64,000 bases of DNA from Gammaproteobacteria bacterium (GTDB lineage: Bacteria; Pseudomonadota; Gammaproteobacteria; Steroidobacterales; Woeseiaceae), in assembly GCA_009937615.1 (NCBI GenBank), contig JAACFB010000011.1, forward strand, positions 6,446 through 70,445, given 5' to 3'. Within the stretch, counting starts at the first letter, position 1, and each line of letters begins with the position of its first letter. The notes beneath the pieces are model-generated. The model did not search any database. It was not told the origin of the DNA and saw only the letters and a program-made list of their open reading frames with translations. Positions 5,158 to 62,650 of the stretch are shown here, in pieces. The translations under genes were made by a program, and so were the position numbers.

Positions 5158-5293
5158 AAGAGTCCCCAAAAAGAGCGTTAAGAGTTGGTTGTGCGAAACG
5201 AGACCGGCCAGTCTATACCGTCTGCAGGAGCGCCGCCAGATGACGGCGGTCTTGAGATTGATACGGACGGCGATGGCGGGCAGGGCGGCTCTA

Positions 5294-5322
5294 TTGACAC
5301 AAATCGGCCACCTGCGTACCCT
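5294..5322 (+). promoter_or_regulatory. possible sigma70 promoter of rpmH-rnpA (TTGACA, 17-nt spacer, TACCCT)
   Basis: Perfect -35 at 5294-5299, a 17-nt spacer and a weak -10 at 5317-5322, 57 nt upstream of the rpmH ATG. Sequence pattern only. Confidence 0.3.
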
Positions 5323-5378
5323 TGCCGCCCTTCCAAGAAGGCGGTCGACAACGACCGAGACACACCAGGTACCGGGCA

Positions 5379-5513
5379 ATGAAACGTACGTATCAGCCAA
5401 GCAAACTCAAGCGCGCACGCACCCATGGGTTCCGCGCCCGCATGGCCACGAAGGCAGGCCGCCTCATCCTCAAGCGCAGGCGCGCCAAGGGCCGCGCCAA
5501 GCTCTCGCCCTAA
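5379..5513 (+). CDS. rpmH: 50S ribosomal protein L34
   Basis: [44 protein letters not shown] (44 aa), from the internal ATG of track ORF 5322..5513. Confidence 0.95.
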
Positions 5514-5566: not shown

Positions 5567-5959
5567 CTGGGGGGTAGTTCGCCGTACCGGTTTCGAAAGG
5601 ACAAGCGCTTACTAAATGCTGCGGCATTCAACCGTGTTTTCAAGCGGGCCACGGCAAGTCGCGACAAGTGGTTCACGATCCTTAGCGCAGACAACGACAT
5701 GGATGCAGCGAGACTGGGCCTGGCGATATCAAAAAAACACTGTCGTCAGGCCACGGGCAGAAACAGAATCAAGCGAATCGTCAGGGAGTCTTTCCGGCAA
5801 CACCAGGGAGCGCTCAGCGGACTCGACATCGTCGTTCTCAATCAACCAGCCGCAAGAACCGGGAGCAATCGGCAACTATTTGATAGCCTAAGGTCTCACT
5901 GGCAGCGATGCGAGCGGGCAAAGCAAGAGCGCGGCAAGCAGGAATTAGGGAATGGATAA
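5567..5959 (+). CDS. rnpA: RNase P protein component (start codon uncertain)
   Basis: This is the C-terminal part of track ORF 5123..5959. It reads RLLNAAAFNRVFKRA...LGLAISKKHCRQATGRNRIKRIVRESFR, the RNase P protein signature, directly after rpmH. There is no in-frame ATG, GTG or TTG between the rpmH stop and the conserved N-terminus, so the CTG at 5567 is taken provisionally. Confidence 0.8.
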   Translation: MGGSSPYRFRKDKRLLNAAAFNRVFKRATASRDKWFTILSADNDMDAARLGLAISKKHCRQATGRNRIKRIVRESFRQHQGALSGLDIVVLNQPAARTGSNRQLFDSLRSHWQRCERAKQERGKQELGNG

Positions 5960-8897: not shown

Positions 8898-10238
8898 GTG
8901 ATTGAGACGATGGACACGATTGTTGCGGCGGCGACCCCGCCCGGTGTTGGCGGCATCAGCGTCGTACGCATCTCCGGCCCTGCGGCGGAAGCCATTGCGA
9001 GCGCCATGCTTGGCAGTCTACCGGAACCGCGACGGGCTACGCACCTGGCCTTTTTCGGAGCACGGGGAGAACAAATTGATTCCGGTATCGCGCTGTACTT
9101 CCCAGCGCCGGGCTCATTTACGGGCGAGCCGGTTTTGGAATTACAGGGTCATGGCGGACCTGTCGTAGTCGGGCTGCTTGTGGATGCCGCCGTGGCGCTC
9201 GGCGCCCGGCTCGCCGAACCGGGCGAATTTACGCGGCGGGCGTTTCTCAATGACCGGCTGGATCTCGCCCAGGCAGAGGCGGTGGCCGACCTGATTTCGA
9301 GCGGGACGGAACAGGCGGCACGCGCTGCGCTGCGAACGCTGACCGGCGCGTTTTCGACGGAGGTCGACGCCCTGGTCGAGCAGCTGACGCGGCTGCGCAT
9401 CTACGTCGAGGCGGCGATTGACTTCCCCGAGGAGGACATCGATTTCCTGGCCGATGCCGACCTCGCAGCCCGAATCGAGACATGCGCGAGCGCATTTGCA
9501 GCGCTGATGCAAAAAACAAGCAGCGGCCGAGTGCTAAGAGACGGCTACCGGGTCGTAATCGTCGGTAAACCCAATGCGGGCAAGTCCAGCCTGTTGAACT
9601 ACCTGAGCGGAGAAGACGCGGCGATCGTCACCGAGCTGGCCGGCACGACGCGCGACATTCTTCGTGAGCAGATCAACATCGATGGCCTGGCCGTAGAGCT
9701 CGTGGACACCGCCGGGCTTCGTGAAAATCCAGACCGGATCGAGGAGGAGGGCATCAGGAGGGCTCGCGAGGCCATCAGAAGCGCCGATGCCGTGCTCTGG
9801 ATCCAGGACGCGACGGAGGCGAGCAACGTGGAACCCGACGAGGAAATTCCGAGAGGCGCCCAGGTCATTGTTGTGCGCAACAAGATCGACCTGACCAGCG
9901 ACGCGCCGAGCGAACCTGGCGACAATTGCGGCGTCGTCAACCTGTCTGCAAAAACCGGCGCGGGCGTCGACGCACTGCATGCCCGGATTCGGGATCTCGC
10001 GGGCTATCGACACTTCGGCGAAGGCGCGGTCACTGCGCGCAAGCGGCATGTTGATGCCTTAAGGCGCGCGTTAAAGCACTTCGAAGCCGGACGCAAAGCG
10101 CTCGCCGACAGCCGCGCCGGCGAGCTTTTCGCCGAAGAGCTGCGCCTGGCGCAAAACGCGCTCGGCGAGATTACGGGCACCGTTTCTTCCGACGACCTGC
10201 TCGGCAGAATCTTCGCCGACTTCTGTATCGGCAAGTAG
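8898..10238 (+). CDS. mnmE: tRNA uridine-5-carboxymethylaminomethyl modification GTPase MnmE
   Basis: The ORF starts at GTG 8898; the ATG at 8910 gives MDTIVAAATPPG and is the likelier start. It has the G-domain motifs GKPNAGKSSLLN and DTAG, and the C-terminal CIGK motif. Confidence 0.93.
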   Translation: MIETMDTIVAAATPPGVGGISVVRISGPAAEAIASAMLGSLPEPRRATHLAFFGARGEQIDSGIALYFPAPGSFTGEPVLELQGHGGPVVVGLLVDAAVALGARLAEPGEFTRRAFLNDRLDLAQAEAVADLISSGTEQAARAALRTLTGAFSTEVDALVEQLTRLRIYVEAAIDFPEEDIDFLADADLAARIETCASAFAALMQKTSSGRVLRDGYRVVIVGKPNAGKSSLLNYLSGEDAAIVTELAGTTRDILREQINIDGLAVELVDTAGLRENPDRIEEEGIRRAREAIRSADAVLWIQDATEASNVEPDEEIPRGAQVIVVRNKIDLTSDAPSEPGDNCGVVNLSAKTGAGVDALHARIRDLAGYRHFGEGAVTARKRHVDALRRALKHFEAGRKALADSRAGELFAEELRLAQNALGEITGTVSSDDLLGRIFADFCIGK

Positions 10239-10411
10239 GCTGCGGTATTGGAACCTGTTCCGCTTCGGCCGCGCATGGATTGCCAGGGTAAGCGCTTCGG
10301 ACAAGCTAAAGAGACAGTCTCAATTTGCGCGCTGCCTTGCGCGGCAGCCTACCTAGGAAAGAAGTTTCCCGGAGACGGGGTACGCTCGAGGGATTGGCGG
10401 TCGAAGACCGC

Positions 10412-11836
10412 CTAGTCCGCCGCTACGGTGGATTCGTCCGGGGGAGGTCGGAACCGTGGCTCGGTCATCGACATCTCGGTTACCGGCCCGTACTTCGCGA
10501 CGTCTTCGCGAATCGCCTGGGCGTCACCGAGGATAACGAAAACGAGATTGTCGGCGGCCGGGTAGGCGCTCGTAATCACGCCTTGGATCGTTTCACCGTC
10601 GGCCGATGCGATGGCGTCGCCGTAGGCATTGATATGCGAGTCGTCGAGCCCGTAGGCCTCGAGCTCGGCGAACTGGGCCGCGAGCTGCGCGCCCGTTTCG
10701 AGCCGCTGTGGGAACAGGCCGAGGATGTAATTCTTACCCGACGCGATCGTTTCTTCGTCGAAACCTTCGGCCCGCATCTTTTCGAGCAGATCGAGCGCAA
10801 GATCGATGGCGGTCGTGGTTGTGTCTGTCTTGGTGAACGAGCTGATCGCGATCGAACCCGGCCGGGAGGGCCTGCGAACCCGGGTTCCGGCGCCGTAGGT
10901 CAGACCGGCCTTGGTCCTGAGCTCGCTCTGGAGCAGCGACGTCATGCGCCCACCGAACAGCGTGTCGGCGATGTCGAATTCGGCTCGCTGCGCATAGTTG
11001 ATCGCGATACCGATATTGCCAACCCAGAAATAACTTTGTGTTGAACCCGGTTTGTCGATGAGCAGGACGCGACGACCTGAAACCGGTTCCGCTGCTTCGA
11101 CATCGGGTAGCGGTGCGTTTGCAGGCTCCCAGTCCTCGAAAGCCGCGCGCAGTTTCTCAGCCATGGCCCCGGCTTCGAAATCGCCCACGACGGCGACGAT
11201 CAGCCGGTCCGCCCCGACATGGTCTCGATAGTAGCGGGTCAGGTCGCCGTGGCGGATGCGGGCCAGGGATTCTTCGCTGCCGATTTGCGGCGTCCCGTAC
11301 GGGTGGTCGGCAAACAGGAAGGCGTTCCCGTAGATGCTCATCAGCGATCGCGGGTCCCCGTCCTTTGCCGCACGGATCTGGTTAATCTGCCGGTCCCGCA
11401 GTTTGACCGATTCGCGGGCATCGAGGCGGGGCCTGCGCAACATGTCGCCAAGCAGCTCGATCATGAGGTCGGCGTCACGTGACATGAACTCTCCCGACAC
11501 TCTGATCACTTCGAGATTCGCCCTTGCCGACAAGGCCGCGCCGACCGAGTCGATAGCGTCGGCAAACTGCCCTGCATCGCGGTCCCCGGCACCCTTTTCC
11601 ATGACGTTCGCAAGCAGGTTTGCCAGCCCACCCCTGTCTTCTGGATCAGCAACGGCGCCACCACGTATGACGGCCTCGACGCCGATCAACGGCACATCGT
11701 GCTTCTCGCTCAAAATCAGCACGGCACCGTTGTCGAGCTCGATACGTGTCGCATCGGGCAGCGTCACGCCCTGAGCCCACGCTCCGGCAACCGCGAAATA
11801 AAGACCAAGCAGGCAGCCGGGGCGGCGCAACATCAC
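10412..11836 (-). CDS. M16-family peptidase-like protein, non-catalytic subunit, secreted
   Basis: 474 aa with a signal peptide (AGAWA/QG). It has M16 architecture, but the zinc-motif position reads GLANLLANVMEKG where the partner has GLSHFFEHMMFLG. Its start overlaps the upstream stop (GTGATG at 11831-11836). Confidence 0.8.
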   Translation of the reverse strand: MMLRRPGCLLGLYFAVAGAWAQGVTLPDATRIELDNGAVLILSEKHDVPLIGVEAVIRGGAVADPEDRGGLANLLANVMEKGAGDRDAGQFADAIDSVGAALSARANLEVIRVSGEFMSRDADLMIELLGDMLRRPRLDARESVKLRDRQINQIRAAKDGDPRSLMSIYGNAFLFADHPYGTPQIGSEESLARIRHGDLTRYYRDHVGADRLIVAVVGDFEAGAMAEKLRAAFEDWEPANAPLPDVEAAEPVSGRRVLLIDKPGSTQSYFWVGNIGIAINYAQRAEFDIADTLFGGRMTSLLQSELRTKAGLTYGAGTRVRRPSRPGSIAISSFTKTDTTTTAIDLALDLLEKMRAEGFDEETIASGKNYILGLFPQRLETGAQLAAQFAELEAYGLDDSHINAYGDAIASADGETIQGVITSAYPAADNLVFVILGDAQAIREDVAKYGPVTEMSMTEPRFRPPPDESTVAAD

Positions 11837-16873: not shown

Positions 16874-17033
16874 GCAGGCTCTTGGTGACCGTGAAGCGGC
16901 GGTATCTTGTCTATATGCCGCAGGCAAGTAAAGGGCACAGGTCCCGAAAAACCGGAGCGCATGGCTGGCGGCGGCCCCTGTCTGCGACTAAAATGCCTCG
17001 CCTCGCAGACAGACGTTGCTCATCGACTGCCCA

Positions 17034-18935
17034 ATGCTTAATCACTACGAAGTGCTTGTTATCGGCGGAGGCCATGCCGGGACGGAAGCTGCCCTGGCAG
17101 CCTCGCGCTCCGGCGCACGCACGTTACTGCTGACGCAAAAAATCTCGACGCTCGGCCAGATGAGCTGCAACCCGGCGATCGGCGGAATAGGCAAGGGGCA
17201 CCTGACCCGGGAAATCGATGCCCTGGGCGGGGCCATGGCCAGGGCGATCGACCGGGCCGGCATCCAGTTTCGAACGTTGAACGCGAGCAAAGGCCCGGCG
17301 GTTCGGGCGACACGCGCACAGGCCGATCGGCAACTTTACCGCCAGGCCATCCGCTTCCTGCTTGAACATCAGGCGGGCCTCGCCATTGTCGAGCAGTCGG
17401 CCGAAGATCTGCTCATCGAGGGAGGCCGTGTCGCCGGTGTCGTTACAGCGGAGGGCGTCACGCTTCGGGCGAGCGCCGTCGTGTTGACGGTCGGCACGTT
17501 TCTCGGCGGGCGCATCCTGATTGGCCGGGAGGAGCGCCCCGGCGGTCGAGTCGGCGACCCGCCATCGATCCGGCTTGCCGAAAGACTTCGTGACCTGCCG
17601 TTTCGCGTGGGCCGACTCAAAACCGGGACACCGCCGAGGCTGGACGGAAGGACGCTCGACTTCGGTGCGATGAACGAACAGCCGGGTGACCAGCCGACGC
17701 CGGTATTTTCATTCATGGGACGCCGCCACGAGCACCCGCGACAGGTCTCGTGCCATATCACTAAGACGAGCGAGGCAACGCACGACATCATTCGTGCATC
17801 CCTCGACGAGTCACCGATGTATGCCGGCATTATCGAAGGCATCGGGCCGCGCTATTGTCCGTCCGTCGAAGACAAGATCGTGCGCTTTGCCGATAAACCC
17901 TCGCACCAGGTATTCGTCGAGCCCGAAGGGCTCGATACGGACGTCGTGTATCCGAACGGCATCTCGACGAGTTTGCCAGCCGAGGTACAGGAGCGCTTCG
18001 TGCGCTCGATCGCGGGATTCGAGAAGGCGCGTATTACGCAGCCGGGCTACGCGATCGAGTATGACTACTTTGATCCGCGCGACCTGAAGCCGACGCTCGA
18101 GACCAAGCCCGTGAGCGGCTTGTATTTTGCCGGCCAGATCAACGGCACGACCGGTTATGAAGAGGCCGGTGCCCAGGGGCTGCTCGCTGGAGTCAATGCT
18201 GCGCGACGGGCGCAGGGGGCTGAACAGTGGTTCCCGAGACGCGATGAAGCCTACATGGGCGTGCTTGTCGATGACCTGATCACGCGGGGTGTCAGCGAGC
18301 CCTACAGGATGTTCACGAGCCGTGCGGAGTACCGGTTGCTGCTGCGCGAGGATAATGCAGACCTGCGGCTGACGCCGATCGGTCGCGAGCTGGGCCTCGT
18401 CGACGACGCTCGCTGGCGCGCGTTCAACACCAAATACGATGCTGTCGCCGCCGAGCAAGAGCGCCTCGACAAGCTGATTGTTCGGCCCGATGCCATGACG
18501 GCCGAGGATACGCATCGGCTCGGGGCGTCCCTGCAGCGCGAGAGCACGGCGGCGGCACTGCTAAAGCGCCCGGAAATCAGGTATCGCGACCTTGCGGCGC
18601 TGTCGATGATTGGCGAGTCCGGCGCCGCGATGGGCGCGGACGACGAGCAGCGCGAGCAGGTAGAGCTGCAGCTCGAGGTGCGAGCCAAGTACGCCGGCTA
18701 CATCGAACGGCAGCAGCGTGAAATCGACAAGCACGCAAAACAGGAAACGTTGCGGCTGCCCGACGACATCGACTATGCCCGCGTAGACGGGCTCTCGAAC
18801 GAGGCGCGGCAGCGACTGGCATCGACGCGGCCCGTGACGCTGGGCCAGGCATCGCGACTGGAGGGCATGACACCGTCGGCCGTCTCGCTGTTACTGATTC
18901 ATCTCAAGAAGCGCCAGTTGCGCCAATCGGCCTGA
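17034..18935 (+). CDS. mnmG: tRNA uridine 5-carboxymethylaminomethyl modification enzyme MnmG (GidA)
   Basis: The ATG at 17034 gives [27 protein letters not shown], with the FAD GxGxxG motif. The track ORF starts at the TTG at 17016. Confidence 0.95.
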
Positions 18936-23072: not shown

Positions 23073-23138
23073 ATCGCGCTCCCACAATTTTAATGTGCAT
23101 TAGAATTGTGACCAAGGTAAAGCAGGAGTAACTGCCAC

Positions 23139-24029
23139 ATGAGCGCAGGCCCACGACTTTGGAACGCCATCGAAGATGAGCGGCCGCTGCAAATTGTCGG
23201 CGCGATCAACGCCTATACGGCCTTGCTCGCCGAGCAGGCCGGGTTCAGGGCTATCTACCTGTCCGGTGCGGGCGTTGCGAACGCGTCTTTCGGTCTGCCC
23301 GACCTCGCGATGACGACGTTGAACGATGTTTGCGAGGACATCCGCCGCATCAGCGGCGCGACGGAGCTGCCGTTGCTCGTCGATGCGGACACGGGTTGGG
23401 GCAGCGCGTTCATGATCGGCCGCACGATCCGCGAGATGGCCCGTGCAGGAGCAGCTGGCTGCCACCTTGAGGACCAGGTTGCGGTCAAGCGCTGCGGGCA
23501 CCGGCCGGGCAAGGCGCTCGTGAATCCGGGCGAAATGTGTGACCGGCTGAAGGCGGCTGTGGACGCCCGTCAAGACGATCAGTTCGTGATCATGGCCAGA
23601 ACCGACGCGCACGCCGTCGAGGGCCAGCAGGCCGCGATCGATCGGGCCGCGGCGTATGTCGATGCGGGCGCAGACATGATTTTCGCCGAGGCGCTCACAA
23701 CGCTGGACGAATACAGGGAGTTCACAGACACGATCGACGTACCGGTGCTCGCCAACCTGACGGAATTCGGCAAGACGCCGCTGTTTACGACGGCCGAGCT
23801 TGCCGAAGCCGGCGTCCGGATCGCGCTGTATCCGCTGAGCGCCTTCCGCGCGATGTCGAAAGCCGCGTTCGCGGTCTACGAAACGCTGCGCAAGGACGGC
23901 ACGCAACGGGCATCGGTCGATAGCATGCAGACGCGCGATGAGCTCTACGAAGTGTTGGGTTACCGCGCATATGAGGCCAAGCTCGACGAGTTGTTCGCCG
24001 AAAAAGGCCTTGATACAGGTAAGGACTGA
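23139..24029 (+). CDS. prpB: 2-methylisocitrate lyase
   Basis: 296 aa in the PEP mutase/isocitrate lyase superfamily ([14 protein letters not shown]). It lies upstream of prpC and prpD. Confidence 0.9.
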
Positions 24030-24069
24030 AGCACCGGCGCCCGGGCGGCATCGGTGAAGGAGCACAGAC

Positions 24070-25191
24070 ATGACCGAGAAAAAGAAAGCGGGTGGCCTGG
24101 CGGGCGTGGTTGCCGGCCAGACGGCGCTCTGCACGGTCGGCAAGGAAGGGGCCGGGCTGACGTATCGGGGTTATGACATCTACGACCTCGCCGATAACGC
24201 GAGTTTCGAGGAAGTCGCCTACCTGCTGCTGCACGGGAAATTACCCAGCCGCGCCGAGCTCGACGGCTATATCGCCAACATCAAATCACTGCGGTCCCTG
24301 CCGGACGCGCTCAAGACCGTGCTGGAGATGGTTCCCGCAGGCACGCATCCGATGGACGTGCTGCGCACGGGGGTGTCATTCCTCGGCAACATCGAACCCG
24401 AGGGGGACTTCTCGAACCAGGCCGGCGTCGCCGATCGTCTGCTTGCCTGCCTTCCGTCGATTCTCCTGTACTGGCATCGATTTCACGCGGACGGCGTGCG
24501 CATCGAAACCACAACCGATGACGACAGTATCGCCGGCCACTTTCTGCATCTTCTGCACGGCGAAGCACCGCCCGAGTTAGTCAGAAAGAGCCTGGACACG
24601 ACCCTGATTCTGTATGCCGAACACGAATTCAATGCGTCGACTTTCGCGGGAAGAGTGATTACGGGGACGTTGTCCGACATGCACTCCGCGGTCGTCGGCG
24701 CGATCGGTGCTTTGCGTGGCCCGCTGCACGGCGGAGCCAACGAAGCGGCCATGGAGCTCATTCAGAAGTTCGACTCGCCGGACGCTGCGACGGCGGGCAT
24801 TCACGCGATGCTGGAACGGAAGGACCTGATCATGGGCTTCGGACACCGTGTCTACACGACATCGGACCCGCGCAATGCGCTCAATAAACGAATGTCGAAG
24901 GCGCTCGCGGACAGGGCCGGTGATACGTTGTTGTTTCCGGTCTCGGAAGCGATCGAAAAAGTCATGTGGGACGAAAAAAGACTGTTCGCGAATGCCGATT
25001 TCTACGCGGCGACGGTTTATCACTTCATGGGTGTACCGACCTACTTGTTTACGCCGATATTCGTTTGCTCACGCATCACCGGCTGGGCCGCGCATATCAT
25101 GGAACAACGCGCCGACAACAAGCTTATTCGCCCGGCAGCGGAGTATATCGGCCCGTCGCTGCGCGAGTGGGTCGCGATTGATGACCGCTAG
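24070..25191 (+). CDS. prpC: 2-methylcitrate synthase
   Basis: 373 aa of the citrate synthase family ([16 protein letters not shown]). It sits between prpB and prpD. Confidence 0.9.
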
Positions 25192-25232
25192 GCGCCGAGC
25201 GCGCGAATAACCACGACAAAAGCGGAGACTCC

Positions 25233-26681
25233 ATGTCCACAACCGATGTTCGTTCAGCGAAGCGCCCCGACTGGGACGCCGCCCTCGTTGATATCGCCGA
25301 CTACGTTTGCGATTACGCGATCGACAGCGATCTCGCATTCGAAACGGCGCACTACTGCCTGATCGATACGCTCGCCTGTGGCTTCCAGGCACTTGATTAT
25401 CCTGCCTGTACCAAGCTGCTCGGTCCCGTCGTGCCCGGGGCAACGCTCGCCGGCGGCGCGCGCGTGCCCGGAACGTCTTACGAGCTCGAGCCGGTCATGG
25501 CGGCGTTCAATATCGGCGCGATGAACCGCTGGCTGGACTTCAACGACACCTGGCTGGCGGCAGAATGGGGCCACCCCTCAGACAACCTGGGTGGAATTCT
25601 TGCGATTGCCGACTACCTGAGCCGGCAGAATCGTGCGACGGGGGCCGCGCCATTGACGATGGGCGATGTGCTTGCGGCGATGATCAAGGCGCACGAAATA
25701 CAGGGCGTGCTCGCGCTCGAAAACAGCTACAACAGGGTCGGCCTTGATCATGTCCTCCTGGTACGGGTGGCCTCGACGGCAGTCGTAACGCGGATGCTCG
25801 GCGGTGACCGTGACCAGGTCCTGAACGCGCTATCGCACGCCTGGATCGATGGCGGCGCACTGCGAACCTATCGTCACGCGCCGAATACCGGATCCCGGAA
25901 AAGCTGGGCGGCCGGAGATGCGACGAGCCGGGCAGTCCGGCTCGCGCTGATCGCGATGACCGGGGAGATGGGTTATCCGTCGGCACTGACCGCAAAGACC
26001 TGGGGCTACTATGACGTCCTGTTCAAGGGCCGGCCTTTCGCCTTTCAGCGCGGCTACGGCAGCTATGTCATGGAGAACGTGTTGTTCAAGATTTCCTACC
26101 CGGCCGAGTTTCATGCGCAAACGTGCGTGGAAGCGAGCATGACGCTGCACGCGGAGGTGAAGGACCGGATCGACGACATCGAGCGCATAGTGATCGAGAC
26201 GCAGGAGGCAGGCGCGCGGATCATCGACAAGACCGGCCCGCTCGACAACCCCGCCGATCGTGATCATTGTATTCAGTACATGGCTGCCGTGCCGTTGATT
26301 TTCGGCCGCCTCACCGCGGCAGATTACGAGGACGACGTAGCTCGCGATCCACGCGTGGACGCGTTGCGCGAGAAAATGGAAGTTCGCGAGAACGAGCAGT
26401 TCACGAAGGACTATTTCGATCCCGAAAAGCGTTACATCGGCAACGCCGTGCAGGTTTTCTTCACAGACGGCACGAGCACCGCGAGGGTCGAGGTTCCGTT
26501 CCCTATCGGCCATCGCGAACGCCGTGCTGAAGGTATACCGATACTCAAGCAGAAGTTCGCCAGCAGCGTCGCGCCGAAGCTCGGTGCGACGCAGTGGGCC
26601 GAGCTCGACGCACTATGCGCTGACCGGGAAAAACTTGTCGCTACGGCCGTCGACGACTTCATGGCGCTGCTGGTCGTCTGA
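25233..26681 (+). CDS. prpD: 2-methylcitrate dehydratase
   Basis: 482 aa of the MmgE/PrpD family, the last gene of the prpBCD cluster. Confidence 0.9.
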
Positions 26682-39394: not shown

Positions 39395-41227
39395 ATGTGT
39401 GGAATCGTCGGTGCAGTTGCCGAAAGAAACGTGGTGCCGATACTGATGGAGGGCCTGCGCAGGCTCGAGTACCGGGGCTACGACTCGGCCGGCATCGCGG
39501 TCCTCGAGGAGAACGGCCTTACGCGCACGCGGCGGGTCGGCAAGGTCCAGGAGTTGCAAAGCGCGCTCGACGCGGCACCGGTCAGCGGCGTCCTGGGAAT
39601 CTCGCATACGCGCTGGGCGACGCACGGCGTGCCCAATGAAACGAACGCTCACCCGCACATGTCCGGCGAAAACATAGCGATCGTGCACAACGGCATCATC
39701 GAAAACCACGAAGAGCTGCGCAAGGACCTGCAAAGCAAGGGTTACGAGTTTACTTCCGACACCGATACGGAAGTGGTTGCGCATCGCATTGCTTACCATC
39801 TTGCTGAAACCGGGACGCTTGATACGGCGGTCAGGGCGACGGTCGCGGAGCTCGAGGGTGCTTACGCGCTCGTCGTCATGAGCAAGCAGGAGCCGGGCAG
39901 GCTCGTGCTGGCGCGCGCCGGCTGTCCCGTCGTGATCGGTCTCGGGATCGGCGAAAACTTCGTTGCCTCCGACGTTGCCGCGCTGCTTCCGGTTACGCGC
40001 AAGTTCCAGTTTCTCGAGGAAGGCGACATTGCGGTTGTCGAGCGCGAACAGGTGACCATCTGGGACCGGAGCGGCAAAGAGACCGCCCGGCCCGTAAAGG
40101 AAAGTGAACTGACGGCTGATGCCGCAGAGCGCGGCCGGTTCCGGCATTACATGCAAAAGGAAATCCACGAGCAGCCCGCGGCTGTTGCGCGCACGCTGGC
40201 CGAGCGCATAGTCGATGGCAGGGTGCTCGATGCGGCGTTCGGTCCCGGTTCGGCCGCCATTCTTGATAAGACCCAGGGAATCCATATCGTCGCCTGCGGC
40301 ACGAGCTATCACGCGGGTCTCGTGGCGCGGTACTGGATCGAGCAGCTATGCCGCATCCCGTGCACGGTCGAGATCGCGAGCGAATACCGGTACCGGTCGC
40401 CCGTAGTGCCGCCCAATACGCTGTTCGTCGCTATCAGCCAGTCAGGTGAAACGGCCGATACGCTGGCGGCGCTGCGTGCGGCCAGGGAGATGGGTTACCT
40501 GTCCACGCTGACGATTTGCAATGTCCCCGAAAGCTCGATGGTCAGGGAGTCCGACCTCGTCATGATGACGCATGCGGGGCCGGAGATCGGCGTCGCGTCG
40601 ACCAAGGCGTTTACGACGCAGCTTGCCGCGCTGGCATTATTGACCGTCGCGCTGGCGCGACGGGCGGGGCTCGAGGAGAAGCAGGAACGTGCGCTGGTCG
40701 CACAGCTGGCCGATCTGCCCGGGCTCATCGAGGAGGTGCTTGCGCTGGATTCTGCGATAGAGACGCTGGCCGAGCACTTCGCCGACAAGCATCACGCCCT
40801 GTTTCTCGGCAGAGGCGTGCAAAACCCGGTTGCGATGGAGGGCGCGCTCAAGCTCAAGGAAATCTCATACATCCACGCCGAGGCTTATGCCGCGGGCGAG
40901 CTCAAGCACGGCCCGCTGGCCCTGGTCGATGAAGACATGCCGGTGGTGGCGATCGCCCCGGACGACGAGCTGCTGGAAAAGCTCAAGAGCAACCTGCAGG
41001 AAGTGAGCGCGCGCGGCGGCGAGCTCTATGTGTTCGCGGACCCGCGCGTGCAGTTCGGTGATCGCGTCGGCATCCATACGATGCGCCTGCCCGCCCTGAT
41101 CCAGGATTTCCAGGCACCTATCCTGTACACGATCCCGCTGCAGCTGCTGGCCTATCACGTTGCCGTACTCAAAGGGACCGACGTCGATCAGCCGCGGAAC
41201 CTGGCCAAGTCAGTAACGGTTGAATAA
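39395..41227 (+). CDS. glmS: glutamine--fructose-6-phosphate aminotransferase
   Basis: 610 aa with the N-terminal MCGIVG nucleophile, two SIS domains and the C-terminal AKSVTVE. Confidence 0.97.
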
Positions 41228-41507
41228 GCCGCGGTACTGACTCGTTGACCGAAGATCCTGTCGCGTCAGGGTAGCGGCTGGCACGCAATATCCAGACGCG
41301 CCGGCGCAGCGAAGCCGCCGGCGACACCGATTGCGGCCACGTGATGGGTTTCGGAAGCGGTTTCTGAGTGCCCTCGTCCGGGTAAGGTCTGCCGCCGGTC
41401 CCGGCACGCCAGCCGACGATCAGGTAGCGCAGGCCATCAGCCGCGCGGCTTTGACCCGACCTGAATAAGTGGTCAGACTTACCGTTTTTTCCGCCGAACC
41501 CCGGGAA

Positions 41508-42671
41508 ATGACGATGACGCTTCTTAGAAAACGGCGTTCTATTTTGCTCGCTGCCGCTGCCCCCCTCCTTTTTACGGCCTGCTCGGATCCCGCACCGCCA
41601 CCCGCACCGCCACCGCCTGCCGTCGAAGTGAAGGCGGTTGCGATGGAACCGGTGGCTACCCAGTTCGAATTCGTCGCCCGCACCCGCGCCAGCGAGGACA
41701 CCGAGATCCGGGCCCGCATTACCGGCAACATCGTTGAGCGCAATTTTGCGGAAGGCCAGGTCGTGCAGGAAGGGGATCTGCTGTACCGCATCGATCCGCG
41801 CCCCTATCGCGCGGCGCTTAACGTCGCCAACGCCGAGCTTTCACAGGCAAGGGCCGCTGTCGATGTGGCGCAGCGCAACCTCAAGCGCGGCGAGGAACTG
41901 GCGCCCAACGGCTATATCAGCGACGCGGAGATGGACAAACTGCGCGGTGATTACGACGGCGCGCTCGCCAGCAGGGAAGCAGCGGAAGCCGCCGTCGAAA
42001 GAGCCTCTATCGATCTCGACTTCACGGACATCCGCGCTCCGTTTACCGGCACGGCCGGTCGCTCCCAGCTCAGCAAGGGCGACCTCGTCAATCCTACGGC
42101 GGGCGCGCTGGTCACGCTCGTGCAGCTCGACCCGATGCTGACGGACTTCGATATCGACGAGCAGGCCCTGGCCGAGAACATGAAGCTCAACCAGAGCCGC
42201 ATTGCGCAGGGCCTTGATCCGCTGGTCTATACGCCGCGGCTCAAGCTTGTGACCGGTGACGAATATGCGCAGGCCGGGGAAATCGACTACGCCAGCAACC
42301 GCATCAATCCCTCCACCGGCACGGTAACCGTGACAGCGAAGTTTCCGAACCCGGATGGCATGCTCATTCCCGGACAGTTCGTTCGCGTCGTCCTGCGGCG
42401 CGGCGAGGCGGAGATGCGCCTCATGATCCCGCAACCGAGCGTACTCGAGGATATGCAGGGCCGATATGTTTATACCGTTGCTGACGACGACACGGTCGTT
42501 CGCAAGAACGTGGTGCTTGGCAGCAGGCAGGGAATCAACTGGGTCGTTGAGAGCGGGCTCGAGGAAGGTGATCGCGTCATCGTGAACGGCGTCCAGAAAG
42601 TGCGGCCTGGCATCAAGGTAGTGCCGAGCACGGTCGCGGCCGTGCCGCACCGCGAAAATGCGCCGCAGTAG
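41508..42671 (+). CDS. RND efflux periplasmic adaptor (membrane fusion protein), lipoprotein
   Basis: The ATG at 41508 gives MTMTLLRKRRSILLAAAAPLLFTAC, which includes a lipobox. HlyD/AcrA-like barrel-sandwich and coiled-coil regions follow. Confidence 0.88.
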   Translation: MTMTLLRKRRSILLAAAAPLLFTACSDPAPPPAPPPPAVEVKAVAMEPVATQFEFVARTRASEDTEIRARITGNIVERNFAEGQVVQEGDLLYRIDPRPYRAALNVANAELSQARAAVDVAQRNLKRGEELAPNGYISDAEMDKLRGDYDGALASREAAEAAVERASIDLDFTDIRAPFTGTAGRSQLSKGDLVNPTAGALVTLVQLDPMLTDFDIDEQALAENMKLNQSRIAQGLDPLVYTPRLKLVTGDEYAQAGEIDYASNRINPSTGTVTVTAKFPNPDGMLIPGQFVRVVLRRGEAEMRLMIPQPSVLEDMQGRYVYTVADDDTVVRKNVVLGSRQGINWVVESGLEEGDRVIVNGVQKVRPGIKVVPSTVAAVPHRENAPQ

Positions 42672-42680
42672 AGCCACCGC

Positions 42681-45600
42681 ATGATCAGCGAAACGTTCAT
42701 CAACCGCCCCAAGTTCGCGATGGTCGTTTCCATCGTGATTGTGCTGGCCGGACTGATTTCCATCCCGGTCCTGCCGGTCGCGGAATTCCCCGAGATATCG
42801 CCGCCGCAGGTTAGGGTCGCGACGAGTTTTCCGGGCGCCAATGCCGAGACGCTGCGCGATGCCGTGGCTGGGCCGATCGAACAGCGGGTAAACGGCGTGG
42901 AAGGCATGATCTACATGCAATCCAGTAGCGCGAACGACGGTAGCTATACACTCGACATCACGTTCGACTTCGGCATAGATCCGGATCAGGCGCAGGTGAA
43001 CGTGCAGAACCTGGTCAGCCAGGTCGAGCCCGTGCTGCCCGAGGAGGTCAAGCGTCAGGGGGTCAGCGTCAAGAAGCAGTCTACCGACATGCTGATGGTC
43101 GTAAACGTCTTCTCACCGAACGGGACCCTGGCGCCCGAATTCATTTCGAATTACAGCACGATCAATATCGCGGAGGTCGTCGCGCGCGTTAACGGCGTTT
43201 CCGAAGCGCTGAACATGGGCGCGCTCGATTACGGCATGCGTGTCTGGCTCGATCCCGATCGCATGGCAGGCCTGGGCCTGACAACCGACGATGTCGTTGC
43301 GGCAATCCGGGAGCAGAACGTCGACGTTGCGATCGGGCAGATCGGTGGTGCCCCGGTTCCCGAAGGGCAGCAGTTCCAGTACACATTGACGGTCCAGGGC
43401 CGGCTTTCCCGCATCGAGGATTTTGAACGTATCGTGATTCGCGCAGGCGGGGATGCCCGGGTCGTATACCTGAGCGACATCGCGCGATTGGAGCTTGGCT
43501 CACAAACGTATTCCTGGTTTGGTGAGCTTGACGGCCAGCCTTCCGCCGTTATCGCAATCTACAAGCTGCCTGACGCGAATGCGCTGGAAGTGGCGGGCGA
43601 CATCGCGTCAACGATGGAGTCCCTGGCGGCGGGCTTTCCGGACGATCTCGACTACGTAATCCTTTACGACACCACGCGCTACATTTCGATCTCGATCCAG
43701 CAGGTGGTCATCACGCTGATGCAGGCCGTGGCGCTCGTAATCTTCGTCGTTTTCCTGTTCCTCGGGAACTGGCGCGCAACGATTATTCCAACCGTGACGA
43801 TTCCGATTGCGCTGATCGGCACCTTTGCTTTCATGCTGGCAACGGGCATGAGCATCAACACGGTGTCGCTGTTTGGACTCATTCTTGCGATCGGCGTGGT
43901 CGTGGACGACGCGATTGTCGTCATCGAGAATACGGAGCGGCACGTCGGTGACGGGCTGTCCGGCAAGGAGGCCGCGCTCAAGACGATGCGGGAGGTCAGT
44001 GGGCCGGTTGTGGCGACGACGCTCGTGCTGCTCGCTGTTTTCGTGCCGGTCACGCTGATGCCGGGCATCAGCGGCGCGCTCTATAGGCAGTTCGCCATGA
44101 CGATATCAGTCGCGGTCGTGATCTCGTCGATCAACGCCCTGACACTGAGTCCGGCCCTGGCGGCGATGCTAATTGGAAAGCACAGGGAACCGAAGGGAGC
44201 GCTCGGCTGGTTCTCGCGCATGCTTGATCGCGCAACGGAAGGCTACCGGGGCATCGTCGGCCTCAGCGTCCGGCGACTCCCGGTCACGATCGGTGTCTAC
44301 CTGGCACTCGCGGCGGTCATTGGCCTGCTCCTGCTGCGCCTGCCGAGCGCGTTCGTGCCGGACGAAGACAAGGGCGCATTTTTCGTCGACACGCAGCTGC
44401 CGGATGGCGCATCGCTGCAGCGTACCGAGGACGTCACCAAGGACGTCAACCGGATCATCCTGTCCGACCCGGACGTGGATCACGTCGTCACGGTTTACGG
44501 CTACTCGATGCTCAAAGGCGTCAGCAGCAGCAACAGCGCTTTCTCGATAGTGATCCTCAAGCCATGGTCCGAGCGACCGCAGCGCTCGCAACACCAGATG
44601 GCCGTGCTGCGCCGTGTCCAGGGACAGCTGATGGCGATACCGGGCGCACTGGCGCTGGGATTCGCGTCGCCCGCGATTCCCGGTGTCGGCAACGTATCGG
44701 GCCTCGATTACCGGCTTCTCGACCGGCTCGGCGGCTCGCCCCAGCAGCTTGCGTCAATTGCGCGCACGATCGTAACCCGGGCCAACGAGGCGCCCGAGAT
44801 CGCGCGTGCCTTCACGAGTTTTCGTGCCGCCATCCCACTGATCGAAGTCGAGGTCGACAGGGTCAAGGCCAAGGACCAGGGTATTCCGCTGAACAGCGTG
44901 TTTGGCGCGATGCAGGCGATGCTCGGGTCCCTGTACATCAATGACTTCAATCTGTTTGGGCGCACGTTCCGGGTCATGGTGCAGGCGGAGGGTGAATTTC
45001 GAAATGACGAGTCGGACATCGGCCGCATATTCGTGCGCAATGTCAACGGTGAAATGGTGCCGCTATCCACGCTGATTTCGACCAGCCCGACGCTCGGGCC
45101 GGAGATGCTCAACCGGTATAACCTTTTCGGGTCCGCCACGATAAACATCATCCCGGCACCGGGATACAGCGAGTCGCAGGCGATCGATGCTATCGCGAAA
45201 ATATCCGCCGAATTGCCGGCCGGCTATAGCTATGAATGGTCCGGCATCACCTACCAGTCGCTCGCGGCCGGCAATGTCGCGCCGATCATATTCAGTCTCG
45301 CGCTGGTCTTCGTGTACCTGTTTCTCGTGGCACAGTACGAAAGCTGGTTGATCCCACTGGCGATACTGTTGTCGGTGCCGCTGGCCCTGGTTGGCGCATT
45401 CGCGGGCCTCACGGCCCTCGGTATTCCACTGAACATCTATGCGCAGATCGGACTCGTGCTGCTCATAGGGATATCGGCGAAGACCGCGATCCTGATCGTC
45501 GAATTTGCGAAGGAGCTTCGCGAGAAGGAGGGTAAATCGATTCTCGACGCGGCCGTCGGCGCTGCCGGGCTGCGTTTCAGAGCGGTACTGATGACCGCGT

Positions 45601-45803
45601 TCTCGTTCGTGCTTGGCGTCGTGCCGCTCGTTCTCGCGTCCGGCGCTGGTGCGGCGTCCCGTGTTTCGATGGGAGCGACCGTGTTCTTCGGCATGCTCGC
45701 CTCGGCGGTATTGGGCACGCTGATGGTGCCGGCGGCTTTTGCCGCCATACAGCGCTTCCGGGAGTGGGCAAAGGCATCGTTGAGCCATGCCGGTAAGACT
45801 TGA
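42681..45803 (+). CDS. RND (HAE1-type, AcrB/MexB-like) efflux permease
   Basis: 1040 aa starting [24 protein letters not shown], with 12-TM RND architecture. Confidence 0.93.
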
Positions 45804-58508: not shown

Positions 58509-59522
<1,014 letters not shown>

Positions 59523-59637
59523 TCAGCATAACAGTAACAATTTCCGATTTTCCCTGTATTTAGGTAGGGTTTCCACGTCTGGACCACAGATTTCTGCCGT
59601 TTCCGTAATAAATATCAGACCGGGCGGGTCATCTCGT

Positions 59638-60153
59638 ATGCAAAGCAACAATGCCGAGCTCAATCGGCGTCAGAGGTTTGATCAGGTAGTGGGTGAGTTC
59701 CATCAGGACATGTACCGTTACGCAGCGTGGCTGAGCCGGGATACCGCCGTCGCCGAAGACGTGGTCCAGGAAGCACTGCTGCGCGCCTGGCAGTCTCTTG
59801 ACGCGCTCCGCGACGATGCGGCTGCAAAACCCTGGTTACTGACGATCGTGAGACGCGAAAACGCCCGTTACTTTGAGCGCAAGCGTCTGGATACGATAGA
59901 CATCGATAACCTGACCGCGTCGCAGTCAGCGATGCTGGCCGAACACCCGGACGAAGAGCTCGACGATGTGCGCAAGGCGATATATGCGCTGGATGATGAT
60001 TATCGTGAGCCGCTCGTACTCCAGGTTCTCATGGGGTTCAGCACCACGGAGATCGCAGAGCAGCTCGGACTCAAGCAAGGCGCCGTGCTGACGCGGCTGC
60101 ACCGCGCCAGGGCGAAGCTGAGGGAAACGATGAACGCCGGGACGGTCGAGTGA
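59638..60153 (+). CDS. ECF-type RNA polymerase sigma factor
   Basis: The ATG at 59638 gives a 171-aa protein with region 2 (VVQEALLRAW...PWLLTIVRRE) and region 4 (EIAEQLGLKQGAVLTRLHRAR). The track ORF extension overlaps hemB and is rejected. Confidence 0.88.
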   Translation: MQSNNAELNRRQRFDQVVGEFHQDMYRYAAWLSRDTAVAEDVVQEALLRAWQSLDALRDDAAAKPWLLTIVRRENARYFERKRLDTIDIDNLTASQSAMLAEHPDEELDDVRKAIYALDDDYREPLVLQVLMGFSTTEIAEQLGLKQGAVLTRLHRARAKLRETMNAGTVE

Positions 60154-60875
60154 GCGCCGGTAACCAGATCATGAATTGCGAAGATTACAGACAGGCCGTT
60201 GCCGCCGAGCCGTCATTCGACGGCGGCGCAGGGCATCTTGCCGACTGTTCGTCTTGCCAGGAATACCGGAAGGAGATGCTGGCGCTGGACCGGAAACTAG
60301 GACTTGCGATGGCCATTGCCGTGCCGAAGCTCGTGATGCCCGAATTGCCCGACATCGAAAATGTCGTCGCGCTGCCGCGCCGGCAGCGAATCACGACACC
60401 GGCGTGGTTCGCCATGGCGGCAACGGTGGTTCTTGCCGCCGTGCTCGGTGTTCGCATGTTTAGCAGCAGTATTGAGTATGACTCGCTCGCAGACGAAGTA
60501 TTGGCGCATTTGCAGCATGAGCCTTACGCACTGCGCGTAACGGACGAGGCGGTCCCGGATGCGAGGCTCGAAGCGGTTGTGCCGGCGACTGTCGCGAGAT
60601 TCGATCGCAACGCCGGGCTGATTACGTATGCGCAGAGTTGCGTCATCAACGGCAACGAGGTGCCGCACCTCGTGATCCAGGGCGAACGGGGACCCGTGAC
60701 AATCCTGTTGATGCCTGATGAAAGGTCGACCGAAGCGGTGTCTTTCGGCAACGCCACGACGAAGGGCGTGATATTGCCCGTCGGCAGTGGCAGCATTGCG
60801 ATTCTTGGTGAGCGCGACGAGCAGCTCGAGAAGTTCGAACAGAGTGTAGTGAAATCGGTGATGTGGAGTACCTGA
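60150..60875 (+). CDS. single-pass anti-sigma factor (DUF3379-like) with an H-x3-C-x2-C motif
   Basis: The GTG at 60150 overlaps the sigma stop (GTGA); the ATG at 60171 is an alternative. The N-terminus carries HLADCSSC, followed by one TM helix (WFAMAATVVLAAVLGV) and a periplasmic C-terminal domain. The DUF3379 assignment is from memory. Confidence 0.75.
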   Translation: MSAGNQIMNCEDYRQAVAAEPSFDGGAGHLADCSSCQEYRKEMLALDRKLGLAMAIAVPKLVMPELPDIENVVALPRRQRITTPAWFAMAATVVLAAVLGVRMFSSSIEYDSLADEVLAHLQHEPYALRVTDEAVPDARLEAVVPATVARFDRNAGLITYAQSCVINGNEVPHLVIQGERGPVTILLMPDERSTEAVSFGNATTKGVILPVGSGSIAILGERDEQLEKFEQSVVKSVMWST

Positions 60876-60936
60876 AGGATACGTCGCCAAATCGGATGCC
60901 CAACCTGGGCAAACAAACCCTAGCAGGAGAGAGAAA

Positions 60937-61269
60937 ATGTCGGAAAAGAAAGTTGTAAAACCTGTAGCGCTGGCCGTAGGTGCGGCACTGGCCGGATCTT
61001 TCGCGCTGAGCGGCAGCATCGCCAGTGCGGAGGCCGTTGACAATCCGTTCGCCATGTCGACGTTGAGCGCGGGCTACATGCTCGGCGAGGGCGAAGGCAG
61101 CTGTGGCGGCGACAAGGAAGGTAAGGGCGATTCCGAAGGCAGTTGCGGCGAAGGCAGCTGTGGCGGCGACAAGGAAGGCGAGAAGGAAGGCGAAGGTTCC
61201 TGCGGTGAGTCCGGCGAGAAAGAAGGTGAAGGCTCCTGCGGAGAGGGCAGCTGCGGCGCCGAGACGTAG
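60937..61269 (+). CDS. secreted Gly/Glu/Lys-rich protein with six EGSCG repeats (HvfA-like putative metal-binding RiPP/protein precursor)
   Basis: AGGAGAG RBS. The signal peptide is MSEKKVVKPVALAVGAALAGSFALSGSIASA/EA, followed by an NPFAMSTLSAGY linker and then six E-G-S-C-G repeats within 60 aa. A terminator follows at 61361. Confidence 0.8.
   Translation: MSEKKVVKPVALAVGAALAGSFALSGSIASAEAVDNPFAMSTLSAGYMLGEGEGSCGGDKEGKGDSEGSCGEGSCGGDKEGEKEGEGSCGESGEKEGEGSCGEGSCGAET
61090..61178 (+). repeat. perfect 32-nt direct repeat (GGCGAAGGCAGCTGTGGCGGCGACAAGGAAGG) at 61090-61121 and 61147-61178, inside the EGSCG gene
   Basis: Read directly. The copies are offset by 57 nt (19 codons) and encode GEGSCGGDKEG. 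Confidence 0.9.
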
Positions 61270-61360
61270 TGAGACCGCACCACTGAAGGCAAATGCGGTG
61301 ATGGCTGCCGCGTAGAGATCCTCTACGATCGACCGTCGCCCCTGCGCTTCAGGTGCCGAG

Positions 61361-61388
61361 AGCCCGTGCTTTTGCGCGGGCTTTTTTA
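61361..61388 (+). terminator. rho-independent terminator after the EGSCG-repeat gene
   Basis: AGCCCGTGC-TTTT-GCGCGGGCT forms a 9-bp stem with one G-U pair. It is followed by TTTTTAT. Confidence 0.8.
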
Positions 61389-61521
61389 TGCGCGGATGAT
61401 GTGCCCGGAGTCGAGCCGGGTGGTGTGCTTCGAGCAGGTGAAGCGGTTCCACGTATCTTGCCGATCCGCTCTAAAACGCGCTCGCTAACGCGTGAGCTCA
61501 GCTGGTACATTAATCCCTGCC

Positions 61522-62118
61522 ATGGCCAAGCAGGTAACACGATGCCGATGGGCCGAGGGTGTCAGCCTCGACTACATCGAATACCACGACAAGGAGTGGG
61601 GCGTGCCCGTTTACGATGACCGGGTGCAGTTCGAGTTTTTGATTCTGGAGGGAGCGCAGGCGGGCTTGAGCTGGTCAACGATACTGAATAAGCGAGAGGG
61701 TTACCGCAACGCGTTTGCTGACTTCGATGCTCAAAAGGTGGCGCGTTTCACGGCTCGGCGCGTCGAAAAATTACTGCAGGATCCCTCGATCGTTCGGAAT
61801 CGCCTGAAGGTTCAGTCGGCGATTACGAACGCCAAAGCGTTCCTGGCGGTCCAGGACGAGTTCGGTAGCTTCAGCGAGTATATCTGGGGTTTCGTTGACG
61901 GCCGGCCCGTTCAGAACCGGTTCCGGAGAGACAGGGATATTCCGGCGACATCTGCGGTGTCGGACAAGCTGAGCAAGGACCTGAAACAGCGGGGCTTCAA
62001 GTTCGTCGGCAGCACGATCATGTACGCGCATCTGCAGGCGACCGGGCTCGTCAACGACCACGTTACCGGCTGTTTCCGTTACAGGCATTGCGCCGATCTT
62101 GCCTCGAAGCGAGGCTGA
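61522..62118 (+). CDS. tag: DNA-3-methyladenine glycosylase I
   Basis: The ATG at 61522 gives MAKQVTRCRWAEGVSLDYIEYHDKEWGVPVYDD, with FEFLILEGAQAGLSW and the zinc-snap residues of Tag. Confidence 0.9.
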   Translation: MAKQVTRCRWAEGVSLDYIEYHDKEWGVPVYDDRVQFEFLILEGAQAGLSWSTILNKREGYRNAFADFDAQKVARFTARRVEKLLQDPSIVRNRLKVQSAITNAKAFLAVQDEFGSFSEYIWGFVDGRPVQNRFRRDRDIPATSAVSDKLSKDLKQRGFKFVGSTIMYAHLQATGLVNDHVTGCFRYRHCADLASKRG

Positions 62119-62188: not shown

Positions 62189-62650
62189 ATGCAGTCAACG
62201 GGGGCGATCGCCATGTCGATAGAACTCAACGGCAAACCGGGCGCAAATTTCTGGATCATTGGCGCGGCTGCGCTGGTCTGGAACCTGATCGGCCTGGTCT
62301 TCTATTTCGGACACGTCACGCTATCGCCGGAGGCGCTGGCGAAGCTACCCGAAGCGCAGCAGGACTTTCTGACGTCGACACCCACCTGGGCAACCGCGGC
62401 GTTCGCGACTGGCGTAAACGCGGGCATGCTCGCCAGTCTCTTGCTGCTGTTGCGCAAAGCCTGGGCTGTGCCTGTTTTCGCCGTATCGCTGGCCGGTATC
62501 GTCCTTCAGGATTTCGATGCGTTCGTATTGCGCGGCGGGTTCGCCGTGGTCGGTGTTAACGGCGTCATCATCCCGTCGATGGTTTTGGTTATCGCGGTGC
62601 TGTTGCTCTGGTATGCGAGGGCCGCCAAAGCCAGGAACTGGCTTGCATAG
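62189..62650 (+). CDS. hypothetical 4-TM membrane protein
   Basis: 153-aa ORF with four clear hydrophobic helices. I recognise no family. The ATG at 62213 is a possible start. Confidence 0.5.
   Translation: MQSTGAIAMSIELNGKPGANFWIIGAAALVWNLIGLVFYFGHVTLSPEALAKLPEAQQDFLTSTPTWATAAFATGVNAGMLASLLLLLRKAWAVPVFAVSLAGIVLQDFDAFVLRGGFAVVGVNGVIIPSMVLVIAVLLLWYARAAKARNWLA

Follow-up and report, generated by a model that had tools for sequence, protein, structure and literature searches.

In the 64-kb stretch of Woeseiaceae DNA analysed here (GenBank assembly GCA_009937615.1, contig JAACFB010000011.1, positions 6,446 to 70,445; hereafter the window), a three-gene unit on the + strand (59638-61269) encodes an extracytoplasmic function (ECF) sigma factor, a DUF3379 anti-sigma factor, and a 110-amino-acid secreted protein with EGSCG repeats. 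We consider it probable, at roughly 0.6, that this locus is a split captophorin/bufferin-like system of the HvfA/FonA "EGKCG" kind, in which only the precursor and its regulators are encoded together and the precursor is matured in trans to 5-thiooxazoles. The unit lies between a divergent hemB (58509-59516, - strand) upstream and tag (61492-62118) downstream. A preliminary description of this DNA had placed an ECF sigma factor, an anti-sigma factor with an H-x3-C-x2-C motif, and an EGSCG protein in one unit, and Pfam, NCBIfam and our own reading of the sequence lead to the same three genes.

The secreted protein and its relatives

By its sequence, the third gene product belongs to the HvfA/Buf_EGKCG ("Lys-Cys" captophorin) family. 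Its signal peptide, strongly conserved across the precursor family, can be read as a Lys-containing n-region, a hydrophobic h-region and an A-x-A site ending SIASA/EA. The stretch that follows, NPFAMSTLSAGYM, includes an NPF-x4-L-x2-GY motif and runs into exactly six EGSCG units, which hold every Cys of the protein, all as the preliminary description had it. The family assignment proposed there also stands: the precursor scores 28.3 bits against the HvfA family domain (NCBIfam NF050137), above the cut-off of 19.5, and it fails the full-length HvfA equivalog model NF050188 (18.3 bits vs 95). A large protein collection holds 1868 homologues, the closest of which come from metagenome-assembled genomes (MAGs) of Woeseiaceae.

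The residues around the Cys vary very little. Across 990 Cys sites in 121 homologues, Glu occupies position -3 at 99.4%, Gly position -2 at 99%, and Gly position +1 at 99.7%. Position -1 is Ser at 93% of these sites and otherwise mostly Ala, Lys or Thr, the four residues together accounting for ~99%. The NPF-x4-L-x2-GY leader occurs in 119 of the 121 homologues. Both Ser codon families are used in the EGSCG units (TCN 367, AGY 163) and are mixed within 57 of 85 genes, which argues for purifying selection on the amino acids and not for homogenisation of the repeats at the DNA level. In more than 100 loci the precursor is conserved in frame, together with its signal peptide, ribosome-binding site and terminator. 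AlphaFold2, given a 42-sequence alignment, predicts a disordered chain (mean predicted local distance difference test score, pLDDT, 46.5), and such disorder of the apo-protein fits a substrate of the RiPP type (peptides made on the ribosome and modified after translation).

The closest likeness to a characterised protein is to FonA of Fontimonas thermophila (PMC13097082), which shares with the window precursor a Sec signal peptide, a leader (F-x4-L-x2-GYM), paired E-G-x-C-G units and a Gly/Glu/Lys tract. The two are of similar length (108 and 110 amino acids) and their alignment includes the leader. They differ at position 3 of the repeat, which is Lys in FonA and Ser in the window precursor, and in their neighbours: FonA is followed directly by FonB (an MNIO enzyme) and FonC (a PME1 partner), whereas the window precursor is followed by tag, has no maturase gene within 64 kb, and alone of the two has sigma and DUF3379 genes upstream. 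In the minimal in-vitro substrate of FonBC, the "leader region" that was retained is QASVFQASDLGAGYMV of FonA. For FonBC, Glu1 of the repeat is held between FonB Arg15 and Arg16, Cys4 is essential, position 5 may be only Gly or Ala, and position 3 tolerates A, R and T, not F or E. In Microbulbifer, the PME1 partner of MmrA has been modelled to engage a conserved precursor leader.

Two secreted proteins with links to copper or oxidative stress, the oxazolin HvfA of Haemophilus influenzae and the gonophorin NgoA of Neisseria gonorrhoeae, carry the same NCBIfam HvfA-family repeat domain as the window precursor. NgoA naturally has AEGSCG units, much as the window precursor has EGSCG. Unlike it, both lack the NPFxxxxLxxGY leader and sit inside DoxX-precursor-MNIO-PME1 operons. 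The enzymes of the EGKCG group are now reported to install 5-thiooxazoles and not oxazolone-thioamides (PMC13097082), so the Cys chemistry given in the preliminary description needs revising. From these relatives, we predict that the Cys residues of the window precursor are converted to 5-thiooxazoles and bind Cu(I).

No maturation enzymes at the locus

The window was searched by tblastn with five MNIO, five PME1 and three DoxX seeds, taken from the supplement of PMC13097082 (FonB/C, HvfB/C, NgoB/C) and from loci fetched later. The best match to an MNIO seed in the 64 kb has E = 0.2, which we do not regard as a homologue, and Pfam annotation of the called genes of the window finds no MNIO, PME1/DUF2063 or DoxX protein. 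The precursor thus adjoins no MNIO (PF05114), PME1 or DoxX gene, the last of which accompanies ~68% of captophorin/bufferin clusters. The absence of all three from the window had been noted before, with the caveat that an MNIO/DUF2063 pair just past its end would make the cluster a conventional one. Identical contigs extend the sequence, and the 10 kb past the window end holds no MNIO, PME1 or DoxX gene, which excludes such a pair; the genes found there are those for an S8 protease and a protein of the CMD family, and hemF, yrdC, topA, smg and dprA.

Two other places for a missing partner were considered and rejected. Some relatives have insertions between the precursor and tag that could have hidden a maturase, and those of L110 encode regulators. 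The 4-TM (four-transmembrane-segment) protein encoded after tag (62189-62650, 145-153 amino acids) could have been a divergent DoxX and has neither Pfam nor tblastn support as such. This protein is conserved in ~70 of 94 related loci, and even at E = 10 neither Pfam nor NCBIfam offers a match to it.

Two arrangements of the same precursor

A scan of one genome per species yielded 80 Woeseiaceae loci. In all 80 the gene order is gor, aroE, hemB, sigma, anti-sigma, precursor, tag, without an MNIO or PME1 gene within 10 kb. Deeper lineages, with anti-sigma factors of 30-40% identity, keep the same synteny and the same precursor leader. Their precursors have canonical EGKCG units in one case (L096) and mixed EGKCG/EGSCG units in another (L100), so that EGSCG represents a change of Lys to Ser inside an EGKCG lineage. 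The sigma/DUF3379/precursor module is a fixed, origin-proximal part of the core genome across Woeseiaceae and these deeper relatives. Two related lineages depart from the pattern, having hemB, sigma, DUF3379 and tag and no HvfA-like gene: L095 (ERZ25039502 contig_32932, a 1.14-Mb contig, 9474-11457) and L192 (GCA_045110335.1, JBGCGB010000006.1, a Woeseiaceae MAG, 9465-11476).

The preliminary description had also proposed a survey of homologous precursors for adjacent maturases and anti-sigma factors. Scanning metagenomes with an alignment of FonA-like precursors gave 80 loci, which fall into two main classes. In class A (~48 loci), a FonB-like MNIO (57-70% identity to FonB) and a PME1 gene come right after the precursor. 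In class B (~22 loci), the layout is hemB, sigma, DUF3379, precursor, tag, as in the window. The remaining ~10 are too short or otherwise unclear in class, and none of the 80 combines both arrangements. NPFxxxxLxxGY follows the signal peptide in both classes. By leader similarity, every class B sequence has another class B sequence as its nearest neighbour, and class B is essentially one group. EGSCG units also occur in enzyme-adjacent precursors (L105, L113, L117, L130, L177, L182), and class A examples adjoin DoxX, copA and copZ, which fits a role in copper handling.

Several side observations came from the same material. In other marine gammaproteobacteria (MAGs), two loci have the order rnf-nth-DUF1841-precursor-MNIO-HvfC-DoxX-copA-copZ (L184 5638-11580, L187 5507-12519), and the EGKCG precursor of L187 bears EF-hand-like calcium-binding motifs. 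A third situation is seen in L104 (10001-10528) and L161 (4422-4766), where FonA-like precursors have neither sigma/DUF3379 nor MNIO genes in their flanks, covered for 10 kb upstream and 3-6 kb downstream. The plasmid collection includes whole chromosomes that are filed there as plasmids, a data-quality problem: L103 is NZ_CP119142.1 (Neisseria gonorrhoeae, 2.17 Mb) and L102 is NZ_AP026896.1 (Aeromonas caviae, 4.94 Mb).

Precursors without adjacent enzymes have been seen before. Stand-alone bufferin-type precursor genes are noted in PMC12452194, where a sizeable share of the precursor genes does not adjoin MNIO. The window precursor is an orphan, as the preliminary description had it, but orphans as such are not new. 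The precursors in PMC12452194 are not described as a conserved sigma/anti-sigma/precursor module, unlike those of Woeseiaceae. Bufferin clusters (Buf1/DUF2282, Buf2) resemble the window unit in their signal-peptide-bearing, Cys-containing precursors and in the ECF sigma/anti-sigma genes that are often nearby, but their anti-sigma factor is NrsF and that of the window is DUF3379. In the literature searched, the sigma/DUF3379/precursor module, its origin-proximal fixation and its exclusivity with the enzyme-adjacent form are undescribed.

The DUF3379 anti-sigma factor

The anti-sigma factor matches Pfam DUF3379 (PF11859) over residues 8-235 with 116 bits, against a gathering score of 33.2. In its N-terminal domain it carries HLADCSSC, the H-x3-C-x2-C motif of the ZAS family (H29, C33, C36), with a fourth ligand, Cys10, upstream. 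All four are invariant in 71 orthologues and nearly invariant among 73 diverse representatives of the DUF3379 family, which has 1364 representative clusters at E ≤ 0.001. This motif predicts zinc binding and is by itself no proof of redox sensing. The N-terminal consensus of the 73 representatives is MNCxEFR, so the protein probably starts at ATG 60171 (MNCEDY...) and not at the called GTG 60150.

An AlphaFold2 model of the anti-sigma factor (pLDDT 89.7) shows an N-terminal three-helix domain, then a single transmembrane helix (residues ~85-104), and beyond it an alpha/beta domain in the periplasm (residues ~105-241). A Foldseek search of the model against solved folds in the PDB gave no match at E < 0.08, and the best structural resemblance of the periplasmic domain, a weak one, is to MucB/RseB. 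Across the 73 representatives, H120, C164 and H173 are invariant and E124 is nearly so, making these residues a candidate periplasmic metal site. The periplasmic part of DUF3379 may thus be an uncharacterised metal-sensing domain. In the searchable literature, only one paper mentions DUF3379, and it is unrelated.

DUF3379 is not a general marker of MNIO clusters, an idea that we rejected on the evidence of Aeromonas and Pseudoalteromonas, whose sigma/DUF3379 pairs lack the ZAS motif and have no precursor or MNIO gene nearby. Nor is the sigma/DUF3379 pair probably a switch dedicated to the precursor, as the preliminary description had suggested. The two related lineages L095 and L192 keep the pair without a precursor gene. 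The pair therefore came before the precursor insertion or is lost less readily than it, and other targets of the regulators must exist.

The closest regulatory precedent for the window unit is sigmaE/MseR of Neisseria (NMB2144/NMB2145; PMC2893595), which controls the DoxX-NgoA-NgoB-NgoC operon. Both systems have an ECF sigma factor, autoregulated in Neisseria and a candidate for autoregulation in the window, an anti-sigma factor with an N-terminal Cys and H-x3-C-x2-C, and an EGxCG precursor, co-transcribed with the pair in Neisseria and almost certainly so in the window. MseR differs in being a soluble protein of ~59 amino acids with no transmembrane segment and no DUF3379, whereas the window anti-sigma factor is a single-pass DUF3379 protein; we therefore rejected MseR as a DUF3379 protein, since it is a 59-amino-acid, ZAS-only protein. 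The Neisseria NMB2140-2145 operon includes MNIO, PME1 and DoxX genes, all three of which are missing from the window unit. MseR did not respond to the oxidants tested (PMC2893595).

The sigma factor and a candidate promoter

The sigma factor has regions 2 and 4 only and a co-encoded anti-sigma gene, as ECF (group 4) factors do. It matches Pfam r2 and r4_2, TIGR02937, and PRK12517 of NCBIfam (206.5 bits, cut-off 197), and its stop codon is overlapped by the called start of the anti-sigma gene (60150). Its orthologues are 66-84% identical across the 80 Woeseiaceae species genomes, and it is 25% identical to Neisseria sigmaE.

Upstream of the sigma gene is a block made up of TTTTCCCTGTATTTAG (59548-59563), TTTCCACG (59570-59577) and CACAG-N15-GTAATAAA (59585-59612). 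These sub-blocks are nearly invariant among 73 distinct upstream regions, and G[TA]AATAA is kept in distant lineages too. The combined pattern occurs only once in the window, here, so that a second copy, which we had considered, is rejected. No sigma-70 consensus promoter was found in 59400-61600. On this pattern of conservation, the block is a candidate autoregulated ECF promoter, whose -35 and -10 elements would lie among its sub-blocks.

The precursor is almost certainly co-transcribed with the sigma and anti-sigma genes, judging from the anatomy of the operon. The 61 nt between the anti-sigma stop codon and the precursor hold a weak 6-bp hairpin (z = 0.09) with no U-run, and we rejected both an internal terminator and a significant hairpin at this place. 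A strong terminator follows the precursor, with a GC-rich stem of 9-12 bp, a UUUU loop and then a U-run. The gap free of terminator hairpins and the terminator beyond the precursor both agree with the preliminary description. Two further features lie in the same intergenic stretch (60876-60936), a GCCC…GGGC(AAA) element that is conserved and an AGGAGAG ribosome-binding site that is invariant. Its small hairpin is thermodynamically non-significant and without covariation; it may serve as a processing site or stabilise the precursor mRNA at its 5' end.

Maturation in trans or an unmodified protein

How would a split system of this kind work? The membrane-bound DUF3379 protein would hold the ECF sigma factor through its zinc-type anti-sigma domain. 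A metal or an oxidative/thiol signal, sensed in the cytoplasm (C10/H29/C33/C36), in the periplasm (H120/E124/C164/H173) or in both, would release the sigma factor, which would then transcribe its own operon from the upstream block, through the precursor to the terminator. PME1 (DUF2063/HvfC) would bind the NPFxxxxLxxGY leader of the precursor in the cytoplasm, and MNIO would turn each EGSCG Cys into a 5-thiooxazole, with both enzymes encoded elsewhere in the genome. After Sec export and removal of the signal peptide, the product would, as characterised relatives suggest, sequester periplasmic Cu(I). The sequences establish what the genes are, the family to which the precursor belongs, the anatomy of the operon, the lack of maturase genes close by and the conservation throughout the clade; the signal, the maturation in trans and the copper binding are inferred.

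Of the two explanations offered in the preliminary description, maturation in trans and a minimal unmodified buffer, we favour the former; the leader and the pentapeptide both have features that fit MNIO/PME1. The conservation of the repeat mirrors the FonBC rules, with Glu and the last Gly almost fixed (99.4% and 99.7%) and variation only at position 3. The leader is common to FonA and the ~48 precursors that adjoin MNIO/PME1, and EGSCG occurs naturally in NgoA and in class A. The enzyme pair is the only known partner common to class A and class B precursors; most simply, then, class B organisms would encode the pair elsewhere. That precursors away from MNIO genes have already been noted in the literature supports this, and sigma plus ZAS anti-sigma control has its precedent in the Neisseria operon. 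Prochlorosins are RiPP precursors encoded away from their single modifying enzyme. The likeness lies in one enzyme serving distant precursor genes; the chemistry and the enzymes differ, and in the window case the enzyme is hypothetical.

Several results weigh against maturation in trans. The MNIO, PME1 and DoxX seeds found nothing at E < 0.01 in the window plus ~120 related loci, although these 1.9 Mb of clade DNA represent one region per genome. Two protein searches with MNIO queries gave no match named Woeseiaceae or lying on a contig known to bear the trio: the FonB search returned only Nevskiales-like matches, and with a profile built from ten high-GC FonB-like MNIOs the matches were to Thiogranum, Nitrosomonas and other gammaproteobacteria, none named Woeseiaceae. 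Searches of the literature and supplements for Woeseia with DUF692/MNIO found nothing. Woeseiales is also missing from a published table that breaks down MNIO-PME1 clusters with adjacent precursors by order and goes as low as n = 1, but this table would miss enzyme pairs without a local precursor and seems to be built mostly from classified isolates, since only 12 of its 12,235 gammaproteobacterial clusters lack an assigned order. The leader lies after the signal-peptide cleavage site and stays in the mature protein, so its conservation could be unrelated to PME1, and the FonA leader tolerates single Ala changes. In addition, we infer both the co-transcription and the inducing signal.

The missing enzymes and the missing order are what one would look for if the whole of Woeseiaceae and its relatives did without MNIO/PME1 and used the EGSCG/EGKCG protein unmodified, whether to buffer metal by thiolates under sigma control or to partner the DUF3379 sensor. 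Such a buffer would be a disordered Cys/Glu-rich protein of the periplasm that binds Cu(I), Zn or Cd by thiolates and carboxylates, in the manner of a metallothionein, under sigma/DUF3379 control. The local exclusivity of the two architectures points the same way, as does the orphan layout, which is ancient and stable, as expected of a self-sufficient gene. However, the near-invariant E-G-x-C-G and the shared leader match enzyme recognition and are hard to explain by thiolates alone, the clade was sampled in a single region of each genome, and about half of the reference genomes of Pseudomonadota do have MNIO-PME1 clusters. We therefore hold a clade without the enzymes, and an unmodified buffer, to be doubtful, though a serious competitor to maturation in trans. 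A signalling role is improbable. Here the secreted repeat protein would serve as a ligand or "bait" for the DUF3379 domain in the periplasm and, when metal-loaded or oxidised, would feed back on the anti-sigma factor. The precursor adjoins DUF3379 in the same orientation throughout the clade, keeps its leader in the mature form, and faces a domain with invariant His/Cys/His, an uncharacterised fold and a weak MucB/RseB-like similarity. Yet the same leader and repeats occur in clusters without DUF3379, DUF3379 pairs exist without any such protein, and the interaction is purely hypothetical, proposed from gene context. As for a low-complexity open reading frame (ORF) that is no gene, or the decaying rest of an earlier cluster, the composition of the ORF, its occasional omission by gene callers (L099) and a few decayed units in relatives (EGSSG in L100) might suggest it; conservation in frame in more than 100 loci, selection across codon families and the 1868 homologues effectively refute it.

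Layout of the locus and its surroundings

Coordinates are collected in the table below. The window is origin-proximal, with recF (1425-2492, -), dnaN (2514-3620, -), dnaA (3820-5400, -) and yidC (5952-7649, +) near its start. It also holds mnmE, mnmG (17016-18935), gidB, parA, parB, the atp operon (~29-36 kb), glmU, glmS (39395-41227) and an RND efflux pump (41469-45803). Amid these origin-proximal genes is a methylcitrate-cycle set, prpB, prpC and prpD, at ~23100-26681. Scanning the window with Rfam and for tRNAs gave no matches.

Features of the three-gene unit and its flanks, in window coordinates
Feature	Position	Strand	Evidence
Conserved promoter-like block, hemB/sigma intergenic region	59547..59612	+	near-invariance in 73 upstream regions
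ECF sigma factor, 171 aa	59638..60153	+	Pfam Sigma70_r2 + Sigma70_r4_2; NCBIfam PRK12517
Single-pass anti-sigma factor, DUF3379 family	60150..60875	+	Pfam PF11859, E = 2e-33
Precursor ORF, 110 aa	60937..61269	+	six EGSCG units; NCBIfam NF050137
Precursor signal peptide (Sec-type), residues 1-31 (MSEKKVVKPVALAVGAALAGSFALSGSIASA, followed by EA)	60937..61029	+	read from sequence
Leader region of the precursor, residues 32-49 (EAVDNPFAMSTLSAGYML), NPF-x4-L-x2-GY	61030..61083	+	motif in homologues and FonA
Core of the precursor, residues 50-110, six E-G-S-C-G in a Gly/Glu/Lys tract, then stop codon	61084..61269	+	
Intrinsic terminator closing the three-gene unit	61358..61392	+	fold z = -3.6 vs shuffles

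Implications

Woeseiaceae are among the most abundant bacteria of marine sediments. The EGKCG-type peptides studied so far (oxazolin/HvfA, fontiphorin, gonophorin, bulbicupramide) were approached starting from their MNIO enzymes, and precursors distant from an enzyme have been mentioned in passing. The locus described here is a natural test of maturation in trans against function in the unmodified state. If the clade does prove to lack MNIO/PME1, HvfA-family proteins would be able to work without these enzymes, perhaps as they did originally, and DUF3379 would act as an anti-sigma domain that senses metal in the periplasm. The DUF3379 family gains its first concrete regulon member and a candidate role in metal or redox sensing. 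Finally, the NPFxxxxLxxGY leader can be used for genome mining that begins with the precursor, thereby reaching cases that enzyme-centred surveys miss.

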